64,000 nt of DNA. It comes from an uncultured Chloroflexia bacterium. GTDB taxonomy: Bacteria; Chloroflexota; Limnocylindria; Limnocylindrales; CSP1-4. The stretch is taken from assembly GCA_963795645.1 (NCBI GenBank), contig CAWCIK010000009.1, positions 50,125 to 114,124 of the forward strand. The letters run 5' to 3'. The notes beneath the pieces are model-generated. The model was given only the letters and a program-made list of their open reading frames with translations. It ran no database searches and was not told the origin of the DNA. Position numbers and translations under genes: made by a program. Shown here one piece after another: positions 37,175 through 46,156 of the stretch (the stretch's first letter is position 1; every line of letters begins with the position of its first letter).

Positions 37175-38533
37175 TCACGCAACCGCTGGGACGCCAAGTT
37201 CTGCCCCCGTTTCTGGCTGAGGCGAAGCAGCCGGCTCACCTGCGTCGCGCCAGGCGACGACGCGCAGCACTGTCGAACCCACGTACAGGAACGCGAAGCA
37301 CGGATAGCCGAACGGTCCTGCGACGGCAATCACGCCCGCGCTCATGAATTGGGCAGCCGTCATGGCACCCGACGTCTGGAACAGGTAGCGGGCGTGATGG
37401 CGGGCTACCGCCGGGCCGCGTATGAGGCGGAAGAGGTTCTCATTGGCGGCCAACGAGCCCGATGCGAAGCCGATTGCTCCGAGCATTGACGAGGCAACCA
37501 GGAAGACGGGCGCAAATCCCGCACCGGGCAGGGCCAGGAGTGGTGCCGTCATCGCCACCGCGCGGATGCCGAATGAATGGCGCAGCATCCTCATCGACGA
37601 GCCGCTCGCGAGGCGCGCGCCTGCCACGGCCGCCGCGAAGACCATCGTCAGCGTGCCGATCGACGAGATCATCATCGTCGACCCGGAGCTCAGGCCGACG
37701 ACCGCGATCGCGAATACTGATAGTGATGGTGCGAAGCCCATGCCGAAGGCGTTTGTCGCGCTGACCTTGAGGAAGCGCTTCAGCTCGGGGGTGGGCAGGG
37801 CGTCGGCCGACTCGGCCTCCGGCGGGACGATGAATCGGCCGGGGTGGCGCAGCCGCCGGACGACCCGGATCTCGACCAGGCCGAGCACGCCTGACACCAT
37901 GAAGGGCAGCGCGAACGCGAGCGGTCCGAAATGGCGGTACAGCGTGTCGAGCAGGGCCGCAATGGGCAGCAAAAGCAGTGCGCCCATTGCCAGCGAGACG
38001 GCCAACAATCGAGGTACGACCAGCCGACGGTCCTGCTCAGGGAGGACAGCCGAGTGCCACGACAACAGGTTGGCGCCGACGATCGAGGTGACAAAGGTGG
38101 TCACGGCGAGGATCAAGGCGAGCAGCACGACCGCCGCAGCTCCACCGACGACGCCCAGTGTGACGAGCGCGGCGAGCCCTGAGAGGTACAGCCCGCGAGG
38201 CTCCGAGATGGCAGCAAAGAGAAGGGTCAGCCCGCGCAGGTTTCCATCCGTCCGATCAAGCAGCCGGGGCATGACCAGCTGGCCCATTCCGCCGGCCAGC
38301 GGCAGCACGCCGAGCAGGACGGCGATGAACGGAGGGCAGCCGATCGCGAGCGCGAAGGGGATGACCACGTCGAAACCGGCGAGCACGGCAACGACGCCCT
38401 GCGTCAGTGCGAGGCGCGTGATATGTCCGAAATCTTGGCGCGCCGAAGCTGCGCCAGTCGTCGATGGTGCTTGCCGCGAGCAAGGTCCGCGCTCCGAAAT
38501 GCAGAGTCCGCGGAGTCGGCCGATTCGGCGCAT
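37175..38533 (-). CDS. MFS-like multi-TM transporter (start uncertain)
   Basis: About 12 hydrophobic segments in two halves separated by a polar loop. Confidence 0.72.
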   Translation of the reverse strand: MRRIGRLRGLCISERGPCSRQAPSTTGAASARQDFGHITRLALTQGVVAVLAGFDVVIPFALAIGCPPFIAVLLGVLPLAGGMGQLVMPRLLDRTDGNLRGLTLLFAAISEPRGLYLSGLAALVTLGVVGGAAAVVLLALILAVTTFVTSIVGANLLSWHSAVLPEQDRRLVVPRLLAVSLAMGALLLLPIAALLDTLYRHFGPLAFALPFMVSGVLGLVEIRVVRRLRHPGRFIVPPEAESADALPTPELKRFLKVSATNAFGMGFAPSLSVFAIAVVGLSSGSTMMISSIGTLTMVFAAAVAGARLASGSSMRMLRHSFGIRAVAMTAPLLALPGAGFAPVFLVASSMLGAIGFASGSLAANENLFRLIRGPAVARHHARYLFQTSGAMTAAQFMSAGVIAVAGPFGYPCFAFLYVGSTVLRVVAWRDAGEPAASPQPETGAELGVPAVA

Positions 38534-38722
38534 TCGGCCGTCGAACCCTCTTCTCGCCGGTCCGTCCCCTCGTGGAGGACGCCGCCTGGAGCGCAGGTTG
38601 ACTACAGCGCTCGCGAGACCCCTGTGGTGCGCCAAGGATAGCCGAGCCGCATTCGCGCCGCTGCCCGCCGATCGTACCGGCGCGATAAGTGATCGCTAAG
38701 TCCTCTTCACCATCATCTGGTC

Positions 38723-39470
38723 ATGGACGGGATCCGACTGGGCGCGATTTGCCGAGCGCTGCGGATCAAGAAACGCTGGCGCCAAGCGGACCTTGCCTTG
38801 CGCGCCGGGGTATCACGGAGCGTGGTCTCTGACATAGAAACCGGCCGGATCAACCGAATGCGTGTCGACGATGTTGTCCATGTCATTGCTGCGCTCGGCG
38901 GCCATATCGATTTCGTCGTCCGCTGGCAGGGCGGCGAGCTCGATCGACTCCTGAACGCGCGTCATGCGGCTCTGCACGAATCGGTGGCGCGTGCGTTCTC
39001 CCGATCGTTGGAGGCTGGACAGATCGCACCTGAGGTGTCGTTCAACGTTCGCGGCGAACGCGGGGTCATCGACATCCTGGCCTGGCACGGCACGCCTCCG
39101 AACACTGCTGGTTATCGAGCTCAAGACGGACATCGTCGACATCAACGAGCTCATGGGCACGCTCGACCGGAAGACGCGTCTCGCTCCGGTCATCGCAAGG
39201 GAGCGCGGCTGGAGCCCGGTCACAGTTGGCTGTCTGGCTGATCGTCGCCGACTCCAGCATGAACAGACGCCGAGTGCATTCACACGCAACAACTCTGAGA
39301 GCGGCCCTGCCGGGTGATGGTCGATCAGTCGAGTCGTGGCTGCGGCGACCCAGCGGGGCGCTGCGCTGCCTTTCCTTCTGGGCCAATGCCGCAGCGCGCG
39401 GCACAAACATCGGCCTGGCCACGGTGAAGCGGGTTCGACGGCCGGCGACCAGGACGACCAGGAGCGTGAC
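38723..39470 (+). CDS. XRE-type HTH fused to a PD-(D/E)xK nuclease-like domain (frameshifts; 3' end approximate)
   Basis: WRQADLALRAGVSRSVVSDIETG; ERGVIDILAWH...LLVIELKT; pieces in three frames. Confidence 0.72.
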
Positions 39471-39620
39471 GTCGGGCCGGTCGCGCGCCGACGGAGGGCT
39501 GGCAGGCGTGATAGTGCTGTTTCGGGGCGGCATTGGCGCAGCTACGGGCGAGCTCTGGCAGGGGAGCAGCAGATCCGGCTGCGGAGCGGCACGCAGGGTA
39601 GCTGGCATATGCTGCCGAGC

Positions 39621-39818
39621 ATGTGCCGCAGCATCATTACTCTCCGCCGTCCCGATCAGTCCCCGACCGACGAGGAGGTGCGCGCAGCCGCTCTCCAGTT
39701 CGTGCGCAAGATCAGTGGCTATCGCGTCCCTTCGAAGAAGAACGAGGATGCGTTCAACGCCGCCGTCGAGGAGATCGCGCATGCGTCGCGCCACCTGCTC
39801 GACGCTGTCGGAGCGTGA
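39621..39818 (+). CDS. DUF2277 family protein
   Basis: MCRSIITLR...TDEEVRAAALQFVRKISG..PSKKNEDAF. Confidence 0.88.
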   Translation: MCRSIITLRRPDQSPTDEEVRAAALQFVRKISGYRVPSKKNEDAFNAAVEEIAHASRHLLDAVGA

Positions 39819-39853
39819 TCTGCGCGCCACCGCAGCGGCCGCGCACGCCTCGT

Positions 39854-39882
39854 TTGACAGAGCGCCGGCAGGGCCGTACCAT
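39854..39882 (+). promoter_or_regulatory. Sigma70-type promoter
   Basis: TTGACA (39854-39859), 17 nt spacer, TACCAT (39877-39882). Confidence 0.8.
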
Positions 39883-39933
39883 CCGGCATCGCGCTCACCG
39901 CGCCAAGCACACATCAGGAGCAGTCCAGCACAG

Positions 39934-40035
39934 ATGATGATGAACCACCTCGCCAGCACCGCAGCAACCCGGCTGCGTTTCGTCGCGCCTCTCGGCGCGC
40001 CGGAGTGCGGGAGATCTGTGCCCTTTTTGACCTGA
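39934..40035 (+). CDS. Putative attenuator leader peptide (33 aa) containing RLRF
   Basis: AGGAG 39916-39920; MMMNHLASTAATRLRFVAPLGAPECGRSVPFLT*; lies between the promoter and the terminator. Confidence 0.55.
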   Translation: MMMNHLASTAATRLRFVAPLGAPECGRSVPFLT

Positions 40036-40060
40036 CGCAAGCGGACGCCGCAGCGGAAGG

Positions 40061-40094
40061 AGCCGGAGGGCCAGATTGGGCCCCCGGCTTTTTT
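40061..40094 (+). terminator. Intrinsic terminator within the 5' leader of the ABC operon (attenuator)
   Basis: AGCCGG(A)GGGCC / GGCCCCCGGCT stem followed by T6, about 100 nt before the ABC ATPase start. Confidence 0.82.
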
Positions 40095-40197
40095 GATGCC
40101 CTTCGCCGCGGCGAGGTCATCAACGAAGCTCCCACCCGCGACCCGAACTCGGGGGCCCTGTCGATTGGAGCCAAGCCAATGAAGCAGGAGCACCGAA

Positions 40198-41109
40198 ATG
40201 GCCGTCACGCTCGATCGGCCGGCCGCGCCGGCGCCGGCCGATGAACAAGCCCGCGTGAACTCGCACATCACGCCCGAGCCGGTTGCGCCGCACGCGGTGA
40301 GCGAAGCGGAAATACCGGCACTGGTCATCGACCACGTGACCAAGCGGTTCGTCGTGGGACGGAAGAAGAAGCCCGTCGTGGCGATCGACGACGTCTCGTT
40401 GCGCATCAAGCGCGGAGAGATATACGGCGTCCTCGGCGCGAACGGAAGCGGCAAGTCGACGCTCATTCGCCTGGTCAGCACGCTGCTGACCATCGATACG
40501 GGCAAGGTCGAGGTCTTCGGTCTCGACATCACCCGCCATGAGATGAAAGTCAAGCGGATGATCAATCGCGTCAGCGTCGACGCGGCGTTCTTCAAGAAGC
40601 TCTCGCCTGCCGAGAACCTCTCGTACGCCGCTCGTCTGTACGGCGTGGATGCCAAGTGGGCGGCCCAGGAGTCGGTCCGGATCATGGCCCGACTCGGCGT
40701 CAAGAAGTCGCGTCTCAGCCGTCCCGTGGAGCAGATGAGCCGGGGAATGCAGCAGAAGGTCGCCATCGCGCGAGCGCTGCTGACGAGTCCGACGCTGCTC
40801 CTTCTGGATGAGCCGACAACCGGTCTGGATCCGCGCTCGAAGCTCGAAGTCCAGTCGTTCATCGAGGAGGTCATGGCCACCCATGACGCCACGATCGTGC
40901 TGACCACACACGACATGGAAGAAGCCAACCGGCTGTGCCACCGCCTGGCGATCCTGGCCGACGGAAGGATCGTCATGGAGGGCACACCGGCCGAGCTACG
41001 GGAGCTGACCAGCACACCCGGCCAGGAGGCCACGCTGCATGACGTGTTCATGCGCTACACGGGTCGCTCGCTCGACGACGACGTCGAGGACGACGACCAG
41101 GACGAATAG
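40198..41109 (+). CDS. ABC exporter ATP-binding protein (DrrA/ABC-2 type)
   Basis: GANGSGKST, MSRGMQQK, LLLDEPTTGLDP, LTTHDMEEA. Confidence 0.93.
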   Translation: MAVTLDRPAAPAPADEQARVNSHITPEPVAPHAVSEAEIPALVIDHVTKRFVVGRKKKPVVAIDDVSLRIKRGEIYGVLGANGSGKSTLIRLVSTLLTIDTGKVEVFGLDITRHEMKVKRMINRVSVDAAFFKKLSPAENLSYAARLYGVDAKWAAQESVRIMARLGVKKSRLSRPVEQMSRGMQQKVAIARALLTSPTLLLLDEPTTGLDPRSKLEVQSFIEEVMATHDATIVLTTHDMEEANRLCHRLAILADGRIVMEGTPAELRELTSTPGQEATLHDVFMRYTGRSLDDDVEDDDQDE

Positions 41110-41133
41110 CAATTCGAAAGAGAGGAACCCAAA

Positions 41134-41343
41134 TTGTTGAGCTACGACCACCACCTCGAGATGGAACGCCGCCGTCGCAGCATCGCTCGACGAGGCGTCC
41201 CCCGTGGTTCGTCCGTTCCGGCTCGCCTTCGGGCGCGCCGCGGATCGAGCCGCGGCGTCAGCCGGGCTGTCGGCCGGCTGATGATCGATTTCGGCAGCCG
41301 TCTTGCTGCTGACCCCGTCAGTGAAAGGGCTCGCTCCCGTTAG
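41134..41343 (+). CDS. Small Arg-rich hypothetical protein inside the ABC operon
   Basis: GAGGA upstream, TTG start, fills the gap between ATPase and permease; C-terminal RAVGRLMIDFGSRLA amphipathic helix. Confidence 0.5.
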   Translation: MLSYDHHLEMERRRRSIARRGVPRGSSVPARLRARRGSSRGVSRAVGRLMIDFGSRLAADPVSERARSR

Positions 41344-41382
41344 GGAGCGAGCCCGAAACCTCACCTTAGTCGGAGACCTGAC

Positions 41383-42183
41383 ATGGCCGTCCTGACACGC
41401 GAGCTGCGCGGCAGCTACGCGTTCTTCGAACGCAACTTCAACCTGGTCAAGCGCTACTGGGGCTGGGAGTTCGGCTTCCTGGTCTATGCCATTGCGGCTG
41501 CGCTGTCGGTCACGCTGATCGGCAAGGAGCAGGGCAGCCAGGAGCTCATCCTGTACCTGGTCATCGGCGCCGTGTTCTGGAACTACCTGTCGGTCGTGTT
41601 CAGCTTCATCGCCGAGACGATCACGTGGGAGCGCTGGGAGGGCACGCTGGAGTACACGATGATGGCTCCGGTCAGGAGGATCACGCACCTCCTCGGATCG
41701 ACCCTGTTCGCGCTCGTGTACGGGTTCATTCATACCTCGATCGTGCTCGCGGTGTTGATCATGTTCTTCGGGATCGACCTGTCGAATGCGAACTGGGCGA
41801 CGGCCGCGGTATTCATGCTCATCGGCTCGGCCTCGATCGTGGGCATCGGCATGATGGCCGCCATCCTGCCGCTGCTGTACGTCGAGCGTGGCGACCAGAT
41901 GGTCTTCGTGCTCAACTCGTTGCTGCTGCTTTTCTCGGGCGTCTACTACAGCATCACGATCCTGCCGCAGTGGATGCAGACGGTTTCCAAGTTCGTACCC
42001 GGCACGTACATCCTCGACGGCATCCGTGCCGGGCTGATGAACGGAGTCCCGGTCAGCGATCTCCTTTTCGACGTATGGCCGCTGCTGATCATGGCCGTCG
42101 TCCTGATCCCCGCGGGCGCCTACGCGTTCTCGCTCGCCGAGCGATACGCCAAGCGCACCGGCAAGCTAAAGAGGGTTGGCTAA
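41383..42183 (+). CDS. ABC-2 type permease
   Basis: Six TM helices, ERWEGTLE..MMAP, FSGVYY..LPQW. Confidence 0.9.
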   Translation: MAVLTRELRGSYAFFERNFNLVKRYWGWEFGFLVYAIAAALSVTLIGKEQGSQELILYLVIGAVFWNYLSVVFSFIAETITWERWEGTLEYTMMAPVRRITHLLGSTLFALVYGFIHTSIVLAVLIMFFGIDLSNANWATAAVFMLIGSASIVGIGMMAAILPLLYVERGDQMVFVLNSLLLLFSGVYYSITILPQWMQTVSKFVPGTYILDGIRAGLMNGVPVSDLLFDVWPLLIMAVVLIPAGAYAFSLAERYAKRTGKLKRVG

Positions 42184-43188
42184 ATGGAAAAGACTGCGAT
42201 TCAACAACCGGCCGAAGAGCTCGGCCTGACCATCCGGCCCTACGTCGGCGAACAGGACGTGCGCGTCATGGTCGACATCCTCAATCGCGAGTTCGAGGCC
42301 GATGCCGTTCCCAACCGCGAGAGCGAAGGGGACAACCTCGCCTGGGTGCGCCACGCGACGGACGCCTTCGACCCGCCGCGCGACATCAGCTTTGCCGAGG
42401 TTGACGGACAAGCCGTCGGCATGGCCGATCGCAACTGGGTCGACACCAACGACGGGCTGCGCGAATACCGCGTCAACGGAGCGGTGCTGCCCCAGTGGCG
42501 CCGCCAAGGCATCGGCAGCGCGCTGCTGAAGCACAACGAGGAACGCTCACGTTCGCTCGCGGCTATCCACGAGACCGAGCGCCAGAAGTTCCTTGGCTCG
42601 TGGTCGAGCGAGCGACAGGAGGGCTCCAGTGCGCTGCTGCGCGCGAACGGCTATGAGCCAATTCGCTGGTTCTTTGAGATGATCCGCGACCTGTCGGAGC
42701 CGATCCCCGACGTCGTGCTGCCCGACGGGATCGAGATCCGACCGGTCGTGATGGAGGACGTCCGCAAGATCTGGCACGCTGACGTTGAGGCGTTCCGGGA
42801 TCACTGGGGCGGGTTCGACGGCTCGGACGAGCGCCTGCAGGGCTGGATCGAAAGTCCGACCTTCGATCCGACACTGTGGGTCATCGCCTGGGACGGCGAC
42901 GAGGTTGCCGCCGGCAACATCAATGCCATCCACACCGAGGAAAACGCCGCCCTTGGCGTACAACGCGGTTGGCTGCACAGCGTCTTCACGCGCCGCCAGT
43001 GGCGCAAGCGGGGTTTGGCGAATGCGCTCATCGCGCATTCGCTTAAGTTGATCCGCGAACGCGGCATGGACTACGGCATCCTGGGCGTCGATGCCGACAA
43101 CCCGACCGGCGCGCTCGGGCTCTACGAGCGCAACGGGTTCACTGTCCTCGAGCGGTCAACCGCCTGGCGCAAGCCGCTCGAGGGCTGA
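42184..43188 (+). CDS. Tandem GNAT acetyltransferase
   Basis: Two acetyl-CoA motifs VLPQWRRQGIG and TRRQWRKRGLA; LGVDADNPTGALGLYERNGF. Confidence 0.9.
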   Translation: MEKTAIQQPAEELGLTIRPYVGEQDVRVMVDILNREFEADAVPNRESEGDNLAWVRHATDAFDPPRDISFAEVDGQAVGMADRNWVDTNDGLREYRVNGAVLPQWRRQGIGSALLKHNEERSRSLAAIHETERQKFLGSWSSERQEGSSALLRANGYEPIRWFFEMIRDLSEPIPDVVLPDGIEIRPVVMEDVRKIWHADVEAFRDHWGGFDGSDERLQGWIESPTFDPTLWVIAWDGDEVAAGNINAIHTEENAALGVQRGWLHSVFTRRQWRKRGLANALIAHSLKLIRERGMDYGILGVDADNPTGALGLYERNGFTVLERSTAWRKPLEG

Positions 43189-43190
43189 CG

Positions 43191-44264
43191 ATGCTCGACC
43201 GCTACGGCTGGGACGAGCACGTTGCGCGCGACTTCGACGAGCACTGCCTACCGGCACGGAGCCGGGGCGAGTGCTCGTCGAGCACCGCGGCCGCTATGTC
43301 GTAGCCACGCACGCGGGCGAACGCGACGCGGTCGTGTCGGGTCGCCTCAGGCACAACGCCCGGGGCGCGGCCGACTTTCCCGCCGTGGGCGACTGGGTCG
43401 CGCTCAACCACGCGGACGAGGCCGCGAGCCGTGGTGCACGCCATCCTGCCCCGGCGCAGCCAGTTCGTGCGGCCCGATCGCGGCGATACGAGCGACGGCC
43501 AGATCGTGGCCGCCAACGTGGACCTCGTGCTCCTCGTCAGCGGCCTCGACCATGACTTCAACCTGCGCCGCATCGAACGCTACGCCACCCTTGCCTGGTC
43601 GAGCGGAGCGGCAGCCGGTGATCGTCCTGAACAAGGCCGATGTGTGTGACGACGTGGCCGGCCGCGTCGCCGACGTGAGCAACGTCGCGCCTGGCATCCC
43701 AGTTCGGGTCCTCAGCGCGCTTAACCGCGGCGGCATCGAGTCCCTGACGCCCTTGCTGGAGCCGGGCATGACCGTGGCGCTGATCGGATCGTCGGGCGTC
43801 GGCAAGTCGACGCTCGTGAACGCGCTGCTCGGCTGGCAGCGCCAACAGACCAACGCTGTGCGCGACGACGACCAGCGCGGCAGGCACACCACGACCGTGC
43901 GCGAGCTCGTGCCGACCGAGTGGGGCGCGCTGCTGATCGACAGCCCGGGCATGCGCTCGGTGGGCATGTGGGATTCCGAGGATGGGCTCGCCGGCGCTTT
44001 CGCCGACGTCGATGCGTTCGCTGCGCAGTGTCGCTTCAACGACTGCTCGCACGAGGGTGAGCCCGGCTGCGCGGTGGCTGCGGCGATCGCCGGCGGGCAG
44101 CTGCCGCGCTCGCGCCTGGACAGCTCCGCAAGCTGGGGCGGGAGGCGGCCGCTCAGGCGCGCACGACCGACGCCGGCCTGCGCGCCAGCGAGCGCCGGCG
44201 CTGGAAGATGATCCACAAGTCGGTGCGCATCCACATGAATGCCAAGTACGGCCCGGAGGCCTAG
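43191..44264 (+). CDS. rsgA: Ribosome small subunit-dependent GTPase A (frameshifted by probable sequencing errors)
   Basis: [55 protein letters not shown]. Confidence 0.92.
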
Positions 44265-44272
44265 CCCCGCCT

Positions 44273-46156
44273 TCAGGGCAGCCGTTGATCATGCCCGGCA
44301 GGCGCGTACGCGATCACCGACACGAGGTCGCGGATTGCCTCCGAGTAGGCCCGCGCCGGCACTGAGGACAGGGCCACGGACGTGTACTTCGACGCTGGCG
44401 TTGTGGGCGCCACATCCGCTGCGTTGACGAACCTGACGGCGATGACGCGCACTCGATCGTGTCGGGCCCCGGTCCTGAGGCGCTCGACGGCCTGAAAGAG
44501 CAGCTCCGCGCGCAGACCACCATCGAACGAGCGCCACGCCACTGCCTCTTCGCCCTGATCCCATGTCCCCACGAATGGCGCGGCCCACCCGCGCTGCCTC
44601 AGATAAGCGCGCAATCGGCGATGATCGACCACCGTCCCTGCGAAGCGCCGGTCGGCGGCCAGCCCGATGTCCTGGGCACGAGGAGCAAACCTCTCGCGTT
44701 CGACCTGCTCGACCGGTTGCTCGATTGAGCGCCGGGCGAGGACGGCTCTCAGGGCTCGGAGGGTCGCTTCGCTCGAGTCCGCTGGATGCCATAGGCTGAT
44801 CACGCCAGCGCTGGCCGGGATCATGGTGCCATCGGCGGCCAGCCAGCCTTCTTCCATCGGAAGTGCGTCAATCGCTCGACCACTGTCGACGCGCGTCACT
44901 GTCCAAATGAGTCGGCGTCCAAACAGGCCGCCGATTGGGTGGTCGAAGAATCGCTCTCGCCAATTGGGCTCCGCCCAGCCACGCGCCGAGGCCATGCGCA
45001 GCTCCGTGCGCTGGCGTTCCTCCGCAACCGCGACGCCGATTTCCGCCGCGTGGGCCGCGAATTCTGCAACGCCGCTTGGATCCGCTGTTGCCTGCGCGTC
45101 CGGTGCCAGCGCAGTGATCGTGCCATCCGGAAGGTGCCAGCTGGACGTGACCGCGCCATTCGGCGTCAGCTCAATCACGCCGCGCGCGCCAGCAATCGGC
45201 ATCTCCAGCCAACCGCGACCGTCGAGTCCGAAGCTGGGCAGGGATGCCTCGACGACGTCGTCCACGGACATCCCGCGCCGTTCGGCGACCTGCTCGAGCG
45301 CGCGGTCAACCTGTTTGCGGACGTTACGGTTGATTACTCGGATGTGCATCGACGCGAGCATGGCTCCGCCGTCCGCGCCATCCATCGCGCCCAACAGTGC
45401 CGCACAGGTGTTGGCCAGCGCAGCGTCGCGCACGACCGCATCGTTGCGACCCGACGAACCCATTCGAAGACCAACCTCACCAACGAGATCCGCAGGCGAC
45501 TCGAGCACGACGGGCGTCAGCCAGAGCATGCCTCGCGCAATTCGCTGATTGGTGGGCCGGACGCCGCCCAGGAGCAGGTCGGGCCGGCTCACGATCTCCG
45601 CCCGCAGCAGCGCCGCCAAAGATCGCCGCAGCGCGGATCCCGCCCTTCTTGCTGTTTGCTCGTCGCCCGCGAGCTGGGCGGCAGCCTGCGCCACCCAGCG
45701 CGAGGTCGGGGCAACGCTTCTGGCGGTCATGACGAGCGGGAACATCGCGCCAAGCACCGTGGCCAACGCTGGATCTGTCGCGAGCATCGTGCGCATCTGC
45801 ACGCCGAAGGGGTCTCCGCGGTCGAATGCGCGCTCCGGCAGCGTGCCGCCGGCCGCGCGTCGCAACACCTCCACGAGCCGCATCCGGCGACTCACCGACT
45901 CCGGCCGGCTGCCCAGCCACTCATCGGACAGTAGGTCGACGGTCCGTTCCAACTCGACCCGAAGCCCTGGATCAGTGACGACTCCAACCCTCTCGATCTC
46001 GGCCGTGATGCCGTCGAGAAGGGGCAGATTGAGAACGCCGAGCATCACGCCCGGCGGGTGGTCGAGTTGCTCACGAACCTCGGCAAGCCGCGGCGCCAGC
46101 GTTGATTGGTCGCTCAAAAGGGCAGCACGCGCGTGCGCGCGACCTGATCCAGCCAC
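44273..46156 (-). CDS. DUF4132 domain-containing protein
   Basis: LGNA-like LANTC, C-terminal W...FFDHPI..RLIW, LWHP, QP.EQ..RE, YSEAIRD signature. Confidence 0.72.
   Translation of the reverse strand: MAGSGRAHARAALLSDQSTLAPRLAEVREQLDHPPGVMLGVLNLPLLDGITAEIERVGVVTDPGLRVELERTVDLLSDEWLGSRPESVSRRMRLVEVLRRAAGGTLPERAFDRGDPFGVQMRTMLATDPALATVLGAMFPLVMTARSVAPTSRWVAQAAAQLAGDEQTARRAGSALRRSLAALLRAEIVSRPDLLLGGVRPTNQRIARGMLWLTPVVLESPADLVGEVGLRMGSSGRNDAVVRDAALANTCAALLGAMDGADGGAMLASMHIRVINRNVRKQVDRALEQVAERRGMSVDDVVEASLPSFGLDGRGWLEMPIAGARGVIELTPNGAVTSSWHLPDGTITALAPDAQATADPSGVAEFAAHAAEIGVAVAEERQRTELRMASARGWAEPNWRERFFDHPIGGLFGRRLIWTVTRVDSGRAIDALPMEEGWLAADGTMIPASAGVISLWHPADSSEATLRALRAVLARRSIEQPVEQVERERFAPRAQDIGLAADRRFAGTVVDHRRLRAYLRQRGWAAPFVGTWDQGEEAVAWRSFDGGLRAELLFQAVERLRTGARHDRVRVIAVRFVNAADVAPTTPASKYTSVALSSVPARAYSEAIRDLVSVIAYAPAGHDQRLP

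Follow-up and report, generated by a model that had tools for sequence, protein, structure and literature searches.

In the actinobacterial whiB7 leader, the upstream open reading frame (uORF) precedes a rho-independent terminator; efficient translation of the uORF leads to termination and translation stress leads to antitermination (bioRxiv 10.1101/2023.06.02.543512). In Streptomyces, translation inhibitors switch on the WblC/WhiB7 regulon by way of a uORF attenuator located on wblC, and this regulon includes ATP-binding cassette (ABC) transporters, 16 GNATs and an RsgA/EngC pair (PMC7157823). In Bacillus subtilis, the bmrB leader ORF, alternative stem-loops and an intrinsic terminator control the genes of the ABC exporter BmrCD, and induction is reported to need translation of the leader (PMC4191407). 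Here, we analyze a leader found at positions 39854-40197 of a 64,000-nt stretch of DNA (the window) from an uncultured Chloroflexia bacterium of the order Limnocylindrales (GCA_963795645.1, contig CAWCIK010000009.1, positions 50,125 to 114,124). It is located upstream of genes for an ABC exporter, a GNAT acetyltransferase and the 30S-maturation GTPase RsgA. Judged by its sequence, this leader is a new family of a well-known type of switch, and it is probably a leader-peptide transcription attenuator of the whiB7/bmrB kind, whose outcome would depend on the position of the ribosome. A sequence-only reading of the locus had proposed this architecture together with a specific macrolide-type sensor in the leader peptide; the architecture is right, the sensor wrong. 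No published account of such a leader in this Chloroflexota group was found in the limited collection of literature searched.

We compared the locus to the described systems. It shares the uORF-terminator logic of whiB7/wblC, and the three functions listed for that regulon are here encoded in one operon. However, we found no sequence relation between the two, the present leader belongs to Chloroflexota, and its next gene codes for an ABC ATPase rather than for a WhiB-type factor. The effector genes thus appear to be controlled in cis, with no regulator and no positive feedback involved. In addition, the rsgA gene in our operon is the only copy in the genome and not a stress paralog. As in bmrB-bmrCD, an ABC exporter is put under the control of a leader ORF and a terminator. 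Yet BmrCD is a heterodimeric type-I exporter, the exporter here is a DrrAB-like ABC-2 system, and the sequences are unrelated; the bmrB terminator is reported to lie within the coding region, whereas ours starts 26 nt 3' of the uORF stop. With ermDL and ermCL our leader has in common a short ORF in which the position of the ribosome would alter the downstream RNA, and the window peptide happens to hold an RLR motif. In contrast to these leaders, the arrest motif is not conserved, and the predicted output is transcription termination ahead of an exporter operon, not expression of an erm gene. Three of the four segments of the classical trp, his and leu attenuators are present (uORF, antiterminator strand and terminator), but there is no codon run, no conserved anti-antiterminator was found, and the operon is not biosynthetic.

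Architecture and conservation of the leader

The leader is contained in a 380-nt gap between a DUF2277 gene (ending at 39818) and the gene of a DrrA-like ABC ATPase (40198-41109). Its parts are the following.

39854-39882, plus strand: promoter found by consensus scan, with -35 TTGACA at 39854-39859, 17 nt, and -10 TACCAT at 39877-39882
39916-39920, plus strand: Shine-Dalgarno (SD)-like AGGAG, 13 nt upstream of the uORF ATG at 39934
39934-40035, plus strand: uORF of 33 codons and a TGA stop (40033-40035), with the peptide MMMNHLASTAATRLRFVAPLGAPECGRSVPFLT
39960-39977, plus strand: hairpin P1 within the uORF, CGCAGC (39960-39965) with GCTGCG (39972-39977)
39985-39998, plus strand: hairpin P2 within the uORF, GCGCC-TCTC-GGCGC, read as A-P-x-G
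40009-40026, plus strand: C box, GGGAGATCTGTGCCC, of which 40013-40024 (or to 40026) form the 5' strand of the putative antiterminator
40036-40055, plus strand: hairpin P3, directly 3' of the uORF stop and enclosed by the antiterminator
40061-40094, plus strand: intrinsic terminator, with a GC stem at 40061-40089 and T6 at 40089-40094; the antiterminator takes its 3' strand from the 5' arm and loop (40065-40077)
40095-40197, plus strand: post-terminator leader, with a hairpin at 40095-40121 and conserved boxes at 40128-40140 and 40151-40162 seen in alignments

The promoter, SD, 33-codon ORF with its arginine 13 (39970-39972), and GC stem with T6 tract of the sequence-only reading are all in place. 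A consensus scan of 38500-45000 returned two promoter-like sites (0.6 expected), of which the one at 39854-39882 is the only one on the plus strand; it found no separate promoter downstream of the terminator that could drive the ABC genes. The TTGACA -35 element and a TAnnnT -10 element are seen again in nearly all related loci shown, and the transcript would start near 39889. The ABC gene begins at ATG 40198, 103 nt 3' of the terminator, and has its own SD, AGGAG, at 40186-40190 with normal spacing. In all lineages looked at, the SD core of the uORF lies 11-14 nt from the ATG; the corresponding distance is 6-8 nt for the ABC gene. The stem of P3 varies in sequence and its loop is often GNRA-like, as seen by eye in the alignments and in the window fold.

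We built a covariance model on the leader core and used it to search the window's own genome and genomes of the genus, the order and the class. At ABC orthologs in genomes of the same genus, all 22 loci examined (the window's included) carry the leader, in which near-invariant blocks alternate with variable hairpins. The model matches once in the window's own genome and in 29 of 32 genomes of the genus, the three without a match being 61-83% complete. It detects the leader in 93 of 151 genomes of the order sample, with 91 of 108 in family f1 (23 of its 27 genera) and 1 of 42 in f2, and in 83 of 151 genomes of the class sample (36/44 in f1, 44/50 in f4, 1/49 in f3, 1/6 in f2 and 0/1 in f5). The next gene is the ortholog of the DrrA-like ABC ATPase in 74 of 76 leaders, and likewise in 20 of 20 f4 loci. 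One of the two exceptions sits at a contig end; in the other (G073), the ATPase and permease genes are gone and the leader precedes a small ORF, rsgA and the GNAT gene. By these alignments and counts, the leader is a conserved unit, beyond chance, and the conservation of the uORF and of the terminator and antiterminator stems upstream of homologous ABC genes, which the earlier reading had named as a check, is borne out, but not that of its RLR motif.

Alignment A4 and the later counts exclude the single f2 match (L224, 32.7 bits), which has no ABC ortholog downstream and is treated as doubtful. A4 also lacks L223 (E = 5e-5) and two duplicates, L067 and L075. The set comprises 96 leaders, of which 9 were left unparsed by regular expressions in the folding count, 11 in the flanking-pair count and 1 in the uORF count. 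A DNA pattern scan of public contigs was too loose, with 7 of the 80 loci fetched being true leaders by the model; the public records with the same leader are metagenome-assembled genomes of Chloroflexota, Chloroflexia or Candidatus Limnocylindrales.

Two genomes contain two leader copies each, G134 (L201 and L217) and G157. One copy in G134 heads an operon that includes rsgA; the other heads only the ABC ATPase and permease genes, separated by a 19-nt gap with no small ORF. Genera g7 and g14 (G054, G111 and G093, 91-95% complete) show neither a leader nor an rsgA match and seem to have lost both together. In genus g11, the leader occurs with no rsgA match above the cut-off; the reverse holds for g9 and g16, where rsgA is present and the model finds no leader.

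Antiterminator and terminator helices

In the window, the C box core GATCTG-Y-GCCC (40013-40023) is complementary to the 5' arm and loop of the terminator. GATCTG (40013-40018) faces CAGATT (40072-40077) in the pairs G40013-T40077, A40014-T40076, T40015-A40075, C40016-G40074, T40017-A40073 and G40018-C40072. T40019 is bulged, and the helix goes on with G40020-C40071, C40021-G40070, C40022-G40069, C40023-G40068 and T40024-A40067. The sequence-only reading had paired GCCCTTT (40020-40026) with GGAGGGC (40065-40071), which are indeed complementary if two G-U pairs are included. The GCCC(T):(A)GGGC core of that helix is conserved and covaries; its TT:GG extension is not conserved, and the main helix runs instead in the 5' direction.

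We scored the antiterminator on a model-based alignment fitted to the terminator and not to the antiterminator. Over 11 pairs, 96.0% of 758 cells are paired, and compensatory changes are found at 4 of the 11 pairs (5 cells). None of 500 shuffles reaches the observed percentage paired, the number of pairs or cells changed on both sides, or the covariation score, and 3 of 500 reach the number of further pair types; controls with a slid register pair at most 57%. Changes in the terminator loop are matched in the C box. In place of CAGA with TCTG, L187 has CACG in the loop and CGTG in the C box; likewise, L183 and L185 pair CGGAT with ATCCG, and L011 pairs CAGATG with CATCTG. Of 85 leaders, 31 have T-A and 39 have A-T as the pair next to GCCC:GGGC, with few evolutionary events behind this distribution, and the bulged base is free to vary between T and C. 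Pairing with the C box accounts for the conservation of the terminator loop.

The terminator is part of the model that matches all 76 leaders, and its stem cells are 93.8-100% paired. P2 shows compensatory changes at 4 of 5 pairs and is 96.9% paired. In an alignment that was fitted to these stems, pairing in P1, P2 and the terminator ranges over 88.6-100%, and 13 of their 23 pairs show compensatory changes. RNAalifold run on the whole 424-column alignment found no compensatory pairs because MAFFT misaligns the variable hairpins, and the model-based alignment was used in its place. In minimum-free-energy (MFE) structures of transcripts ending before the 3' arm of the terminator, the core of the C box:terminator helix is present in 77 of 87 leaders; in those of full-length leaders, the terminator is present in 77 of 87. 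By pairing and folding, the antiterminator and terminator are mutually exclusive helices. The conservation of the leader and the pairing of its helices together support the order promoter, uORF, antiterminator, terminator and operon proposed earlier.

Two other pairings were considered and rejected. An anti-antiterminator in which the early uORF (a TCTCC-like segment) pairs with the 5' half of the C box has duplex energies on a par with shuffled sequence (mean z -0.18, 88 leaders). Pairing of the start-codon region, GCACAGAT with ATCTGTGC, which is seen in the full-length MFE structure of the window, is kept in the closest relatives only and is not general.

The uORF and the predicted switch

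We counted as a uORF a frame that begins with a start codon, has an SD core 4-20 nt ahead of it and stays open through the C box. Of 96 leaders, 95 contain one, with a length of 19-34 codons, and the same 95 carry a GGAG or GAGG core ahead of the start. In codons 2-9 of the 69 distinct uORFs, the GC content by codon position is 0.45/0.47/0.85, and the last value matches the third-position GC of the operon genes (0.84-0.91). The 24 nt upstream of the uORF give 0.65/0.56/0.53 and no third-position bias. Codons 2-9 are conserved in neither peptide nor nucleotides. By codon composition, the uORF is thus a sequence that evolves as real coding sequence.

Further downstream, the distance from the ATG to P2 differs across lineages by whole codons only, and P2 is therefore always in the A-P-x-G frame. 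Single-base insertions and deletions are tolerated from P2 to the C box. The invariant nucleotides of the C box, GGGAGATCTGYGCCC, are read as ...GRSVPxxx-stop in 79 leaders and as ...AGDLCPS-stop in 16; being fixed in two reading frames, they point to selection acting there on the RNA. The peptide motifs of the uORF appear to be conserved mostly as a by-product of the RNA. In 94 of 95 leaders, the end of the stop codon falls 4-13 nt beyond the C box, and in 76 of the 95 this distance is exactly 12 nt. The uORF peptide belongs to no Pfam or NCBIfam family, and its Atlas clusters contain only 'hypothetical protein' entries; none of the peptides examined has a run of one codon as in the trp, his and leu attenuators.

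From the parts of the leader, their conservation, the coding uORF and the two exclusive helices, we infer the direction of the switch and its signal. Transcription from the conserved promoter would be followed by translation of the 33-codon uORF, which holds the C box in its last third. As GATCTG-T-GCCC(T), the C box could capture the 5' arm and loop of the terminator (AGGGCCAGATT). A ribosome that keeps pace would reach the uORF stop, the terminator and its T-tract would form, and transcription would end at about 40094. The C box would then be inside the ribosome, because the stop codon ends 12 nt past it. Given the general size of the ribosome footprint, a ribosome whose A site holds the stop codon would cover GCCC and part or all of GATCTG, and not the terminator. 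Timely translation would thus favor termination by hiding the C box and not the terminator. A ribosome that is late, slow, stalled in the first two-thirds of the uORF or not loaded at all would leave the C box free to pair with the 5' half of the terminator once this is made. No terminator would then form, and read-through would reach the genes for the ABC ATPase, the small ORF, the permease, the GNAT and RsgA. The masking logic put forward in the sequence-only reading, with a ribosome at the end of the uORF hiding the antiterminator strand and one further upstream freeing it, is supported by the geometry of the uORF and C box. Since the leaders share no particular stall motif or run of codons, we take the signal to be a general slowdown of translation, caused by inhibitors, starvation or too few active ribosomes, rather than one drug.

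Several points weigh against this attenuator model. No RNA run was found that contains this stretch, and termination at about 40094 and read-through are predictions from the sequence. The compensatory changes in the antiterminator are few, with the C box and terminator being highly conserved, and related genomes are not independent of one another. Equilibrium folds in which a 'stalled' ribosome is masked, as the earlier reading had suggested for a check, still yield the terminator; with a terminator this stable, the model depends on co-transcriptional kinetics. A conserved anti-antiterminator (1:2 pairing) was not found in the leaders, and an untranslated leader should therefore read through. 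The uniformly long spacing between SD and ATG of the uORF looks like a consistent design feature that counts in the same direction. A ribosome-based model does not explain CGGGAGA, the C box's invariant 5' half, or the boxes at 40128-40140 and 40151-40162. In most other genera and in f4, these two boxes are replaced by a second long hairpin, GAGCCGCG...CGCGGCTC, with a T-rich run, which lies between the first terminator and the ABC start (for example in L188-L204 and L232-L251; in L188 it is found about 60-110 nt past the first T-tract). This hairpin is possibly a second terminator, and the model leaves it unexplained. The window's genus has a different hairpin (40095-40121) and the two conserved boxes at this site.

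We considered four other explanations for the leader. A macrolide- or ketolide-type arrest at R-L-R (39970-39978), as in the sequence-only reading, would stall the ribosome and induce the operon. The ErmDL leader carries MRLR, the uORF of the window reads T-R-L-R-F, and a ribosome stalled there would leave the C box free. However, RLR is present in only 6 of the 25 distinct uORF peptides of the genus and in 9 of 66 overall; in the genus, LR is preceded by A in 8 peptides, by R in 6, V in 4, E in 3, M in 2, and G and T in 1 each. The R13-L14-R15 codons of the window are the loop end and 3' arm of P1 (codons 14-15 being CTG CGT), and P1 shows compensatory changes at 7 of 7 pairs in an alignment fitted to this structure. 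Both P1 arms are altered in genus g11 (GGCAGC/GCTGCC), where LR becomes LP. P1 is absent from g5-, g8- and several f4-type leaders, and P1 and RLR are missing from most other genera. The commonest +x+ motif in the peptides, RGR (31 of 66), lies on the C box itself, and a stall there would mask the antiterminator. Downstream are genes for a DrrAB-like ABC-2 exporter, a GNAT and RsgA and no macrolide-resistance determinant, and nothing links the leader to macrolides. With RLR not conserved and its codons forming an arm of P1, a macrolide-specific sensor is not supported, and we regard it as highly improbable. Peptide motifs such as RLR and GRSVP can be by-products of RNA pairing, which calls for caution when arrest peptides are assigned from motifs. 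A programmed nascent-peptide arrest of another kind, in which the peptide core R-x-x-A-P-x-G stops the ribosome at P2, just upstream of the C box, whether or not a small-molecule cofactor takes part, and a specific signal turns the operon on, would agree with an arginine at -3 from A-P in 47 of 63 distinct peptides, lineages without P1 included, and with the fixed A-P-x-G frame of P2 despite differing frames downstream. With the G codon in its P site, the ribosome would extend to about 4 nt short of GATCTG. Yet the P2 nucleotides form a hairpin with compensatory changes, so that the conservation of the peptide may itself be secondary to the RNA. In f4 leaders, TP or SP is found instead or the motif is lacking, and no known arrest motif was matched. 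This form of arrest seems to us quite unlikely.

A riboswitch-like or protein-bound leader, in which a ligand or an RNA-binding protein selects terminator or antiterminator and the uORF is translated without sensing, would account for conserved parts that a ribosome does not need, namely the 5' half of the C box, the near-invariant terminator, the post-terminator boxes and the second hairpin. We consider it unlikely, too. At the gathering score, the only Rfam 15 match in the window is a tRNA elsewhere, and in a search of 39750-41450 up to E = 10 the best match reaches 22 bits against a gathering score of 50, with no relevant family. Moreover, the start, frame and stop position of the uORF are conserved relative to the antiterminator, and the conservation of the terminator loop is accounted for by its pairing with the C box. 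The uORF product could also be an exported or modified peptide, similar to a ribosomally synthesized and post-translationally modified peptide (RiPP), that is handled by the GNAT and the ABC exporter, with the terminator setting the ratio of precursor to enzymes. A small peptide gene, a terminator, an ABC exporter and an acetyltransferase do resemble some peptide gene clusters. However, the C-terminal third of the peptide is read in two frames across lineages while its nucleotides are fixed, the N-terminal third is not conserved, the operon encodes no other peptide-modifying enzyme, and the covariation of the antiterminator has no place in such a scheme, which makes a RiPP-like product the most improbable explanation of all.

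Operon genes and proposed link to translation

The genes that read-through from the attenuator would reach in the window are listed here by family assignment.

40198-41109, plus strand: DrrA-like ABC ATPase, the first structural gene
41134-41343, plus strand: conserved Arg-rich small ORF of 69 codons, with its stop in the loop of a hairpin at 41327-41355
41383-42183, plus strand: ABC-2 (DrrB-like) permease
42184-43188, plus strand: two-domain GNAT acetyltransferase, MshD-like (below the curated cut-off)
43191-44261, plus strand: rsgA, 30S-maturation GTPase, the only rsgA locus found in the genome, frame-broken in the assembly

The ABC exporter, GNAT and rsgA genes are thus those given in the sequence-only reading, which had missed the small ORF between ATPase and permease and the broken frame of rsgA. 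The small ORF has about 60-75 codons in relatives, a strong SD, the core RRxIGRSMIRIGxRLAA[DE]P and the end ...ARSR-stop. It is found in most f1 and many f4 loci, is retained in G073 without the ABC genes, and is absent from L011, L012, L091 and L217. Its peptide belongs to no Pfam or NCBIfam family, and Atlas clusters hold only 'hypothetical protein' entries. The hairpin at 41327-41355 is GC-rich and has no T-tract.

The rsgA gene of the window is spread over at least three reading-frame segments, with a frame switch near 43610 and a switch back near 44125; frame 0 holds the N terminus and contains an in-frame stop, and it matches poorly over about residues 30-80. These breaks could be assembly indels or mark a pseudogene. 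The gene is intact in L091, L058 and L044 (about 365-385 amino acids) and is also broken in L051. In f1, rsgA is part of the operon at 21 of 27 loci inspected, and 3 of the six others end too early to tell. In 34 of 41 genomes, a single locus exceeds the cut-off for TIGR00157; one duplicated contig and one split hit are the exceptions. Being single-copy in f1 and located behind the leader, this housekeeping 30S-maturation GTPase would thus be under attenuator control. In f4, the ABC ATPase, the permease and two or three GNATs are present in 20 of 20 loci, with no rsgA within the approximately 5.2 kb fetched.

Upstream of the leader, one further gene was noted.

39621-39818, plus strand: DUF2277 gene

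Among the genus loci shown, about half have it directly upstream of the leader, and a tblastn match lies upstream in L067 and L075. The gene probably has only 65 codons and starts with MCRSI...; in the listed 160-residue ORF from 39336, the DUF2277 match is limited to residues 96-158.

The leader provides a candidate new RNA or leader family for which a covariance model is ready, and it offers a regulatory element that can be put to the test in soil Chloroflexota of a large, uncultured group. If it works as proposed, an ABC exporter, GNATs and one family's sole rsgA would be controlled together by the status of translation, mirroring the functions found under WhiB7/WblC in Actinobacteria (PMC7157823). 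It is conceivable, though we put this forward with considerable doubt, that the leader gauges translation capacity and feeds back on ribosome assembly through the sole rsgA of f1. Here, few active 30S subunits or slow elongation would lower the occupancy of the uORF, the antiterminator would form, and more RsgA, exporter and acetyltransferases would be made. If true, the leader and its operon would correspond to the WhiB7 regulon of Actinobacteria, but with the wiring in cis and no need for a transcription factor.

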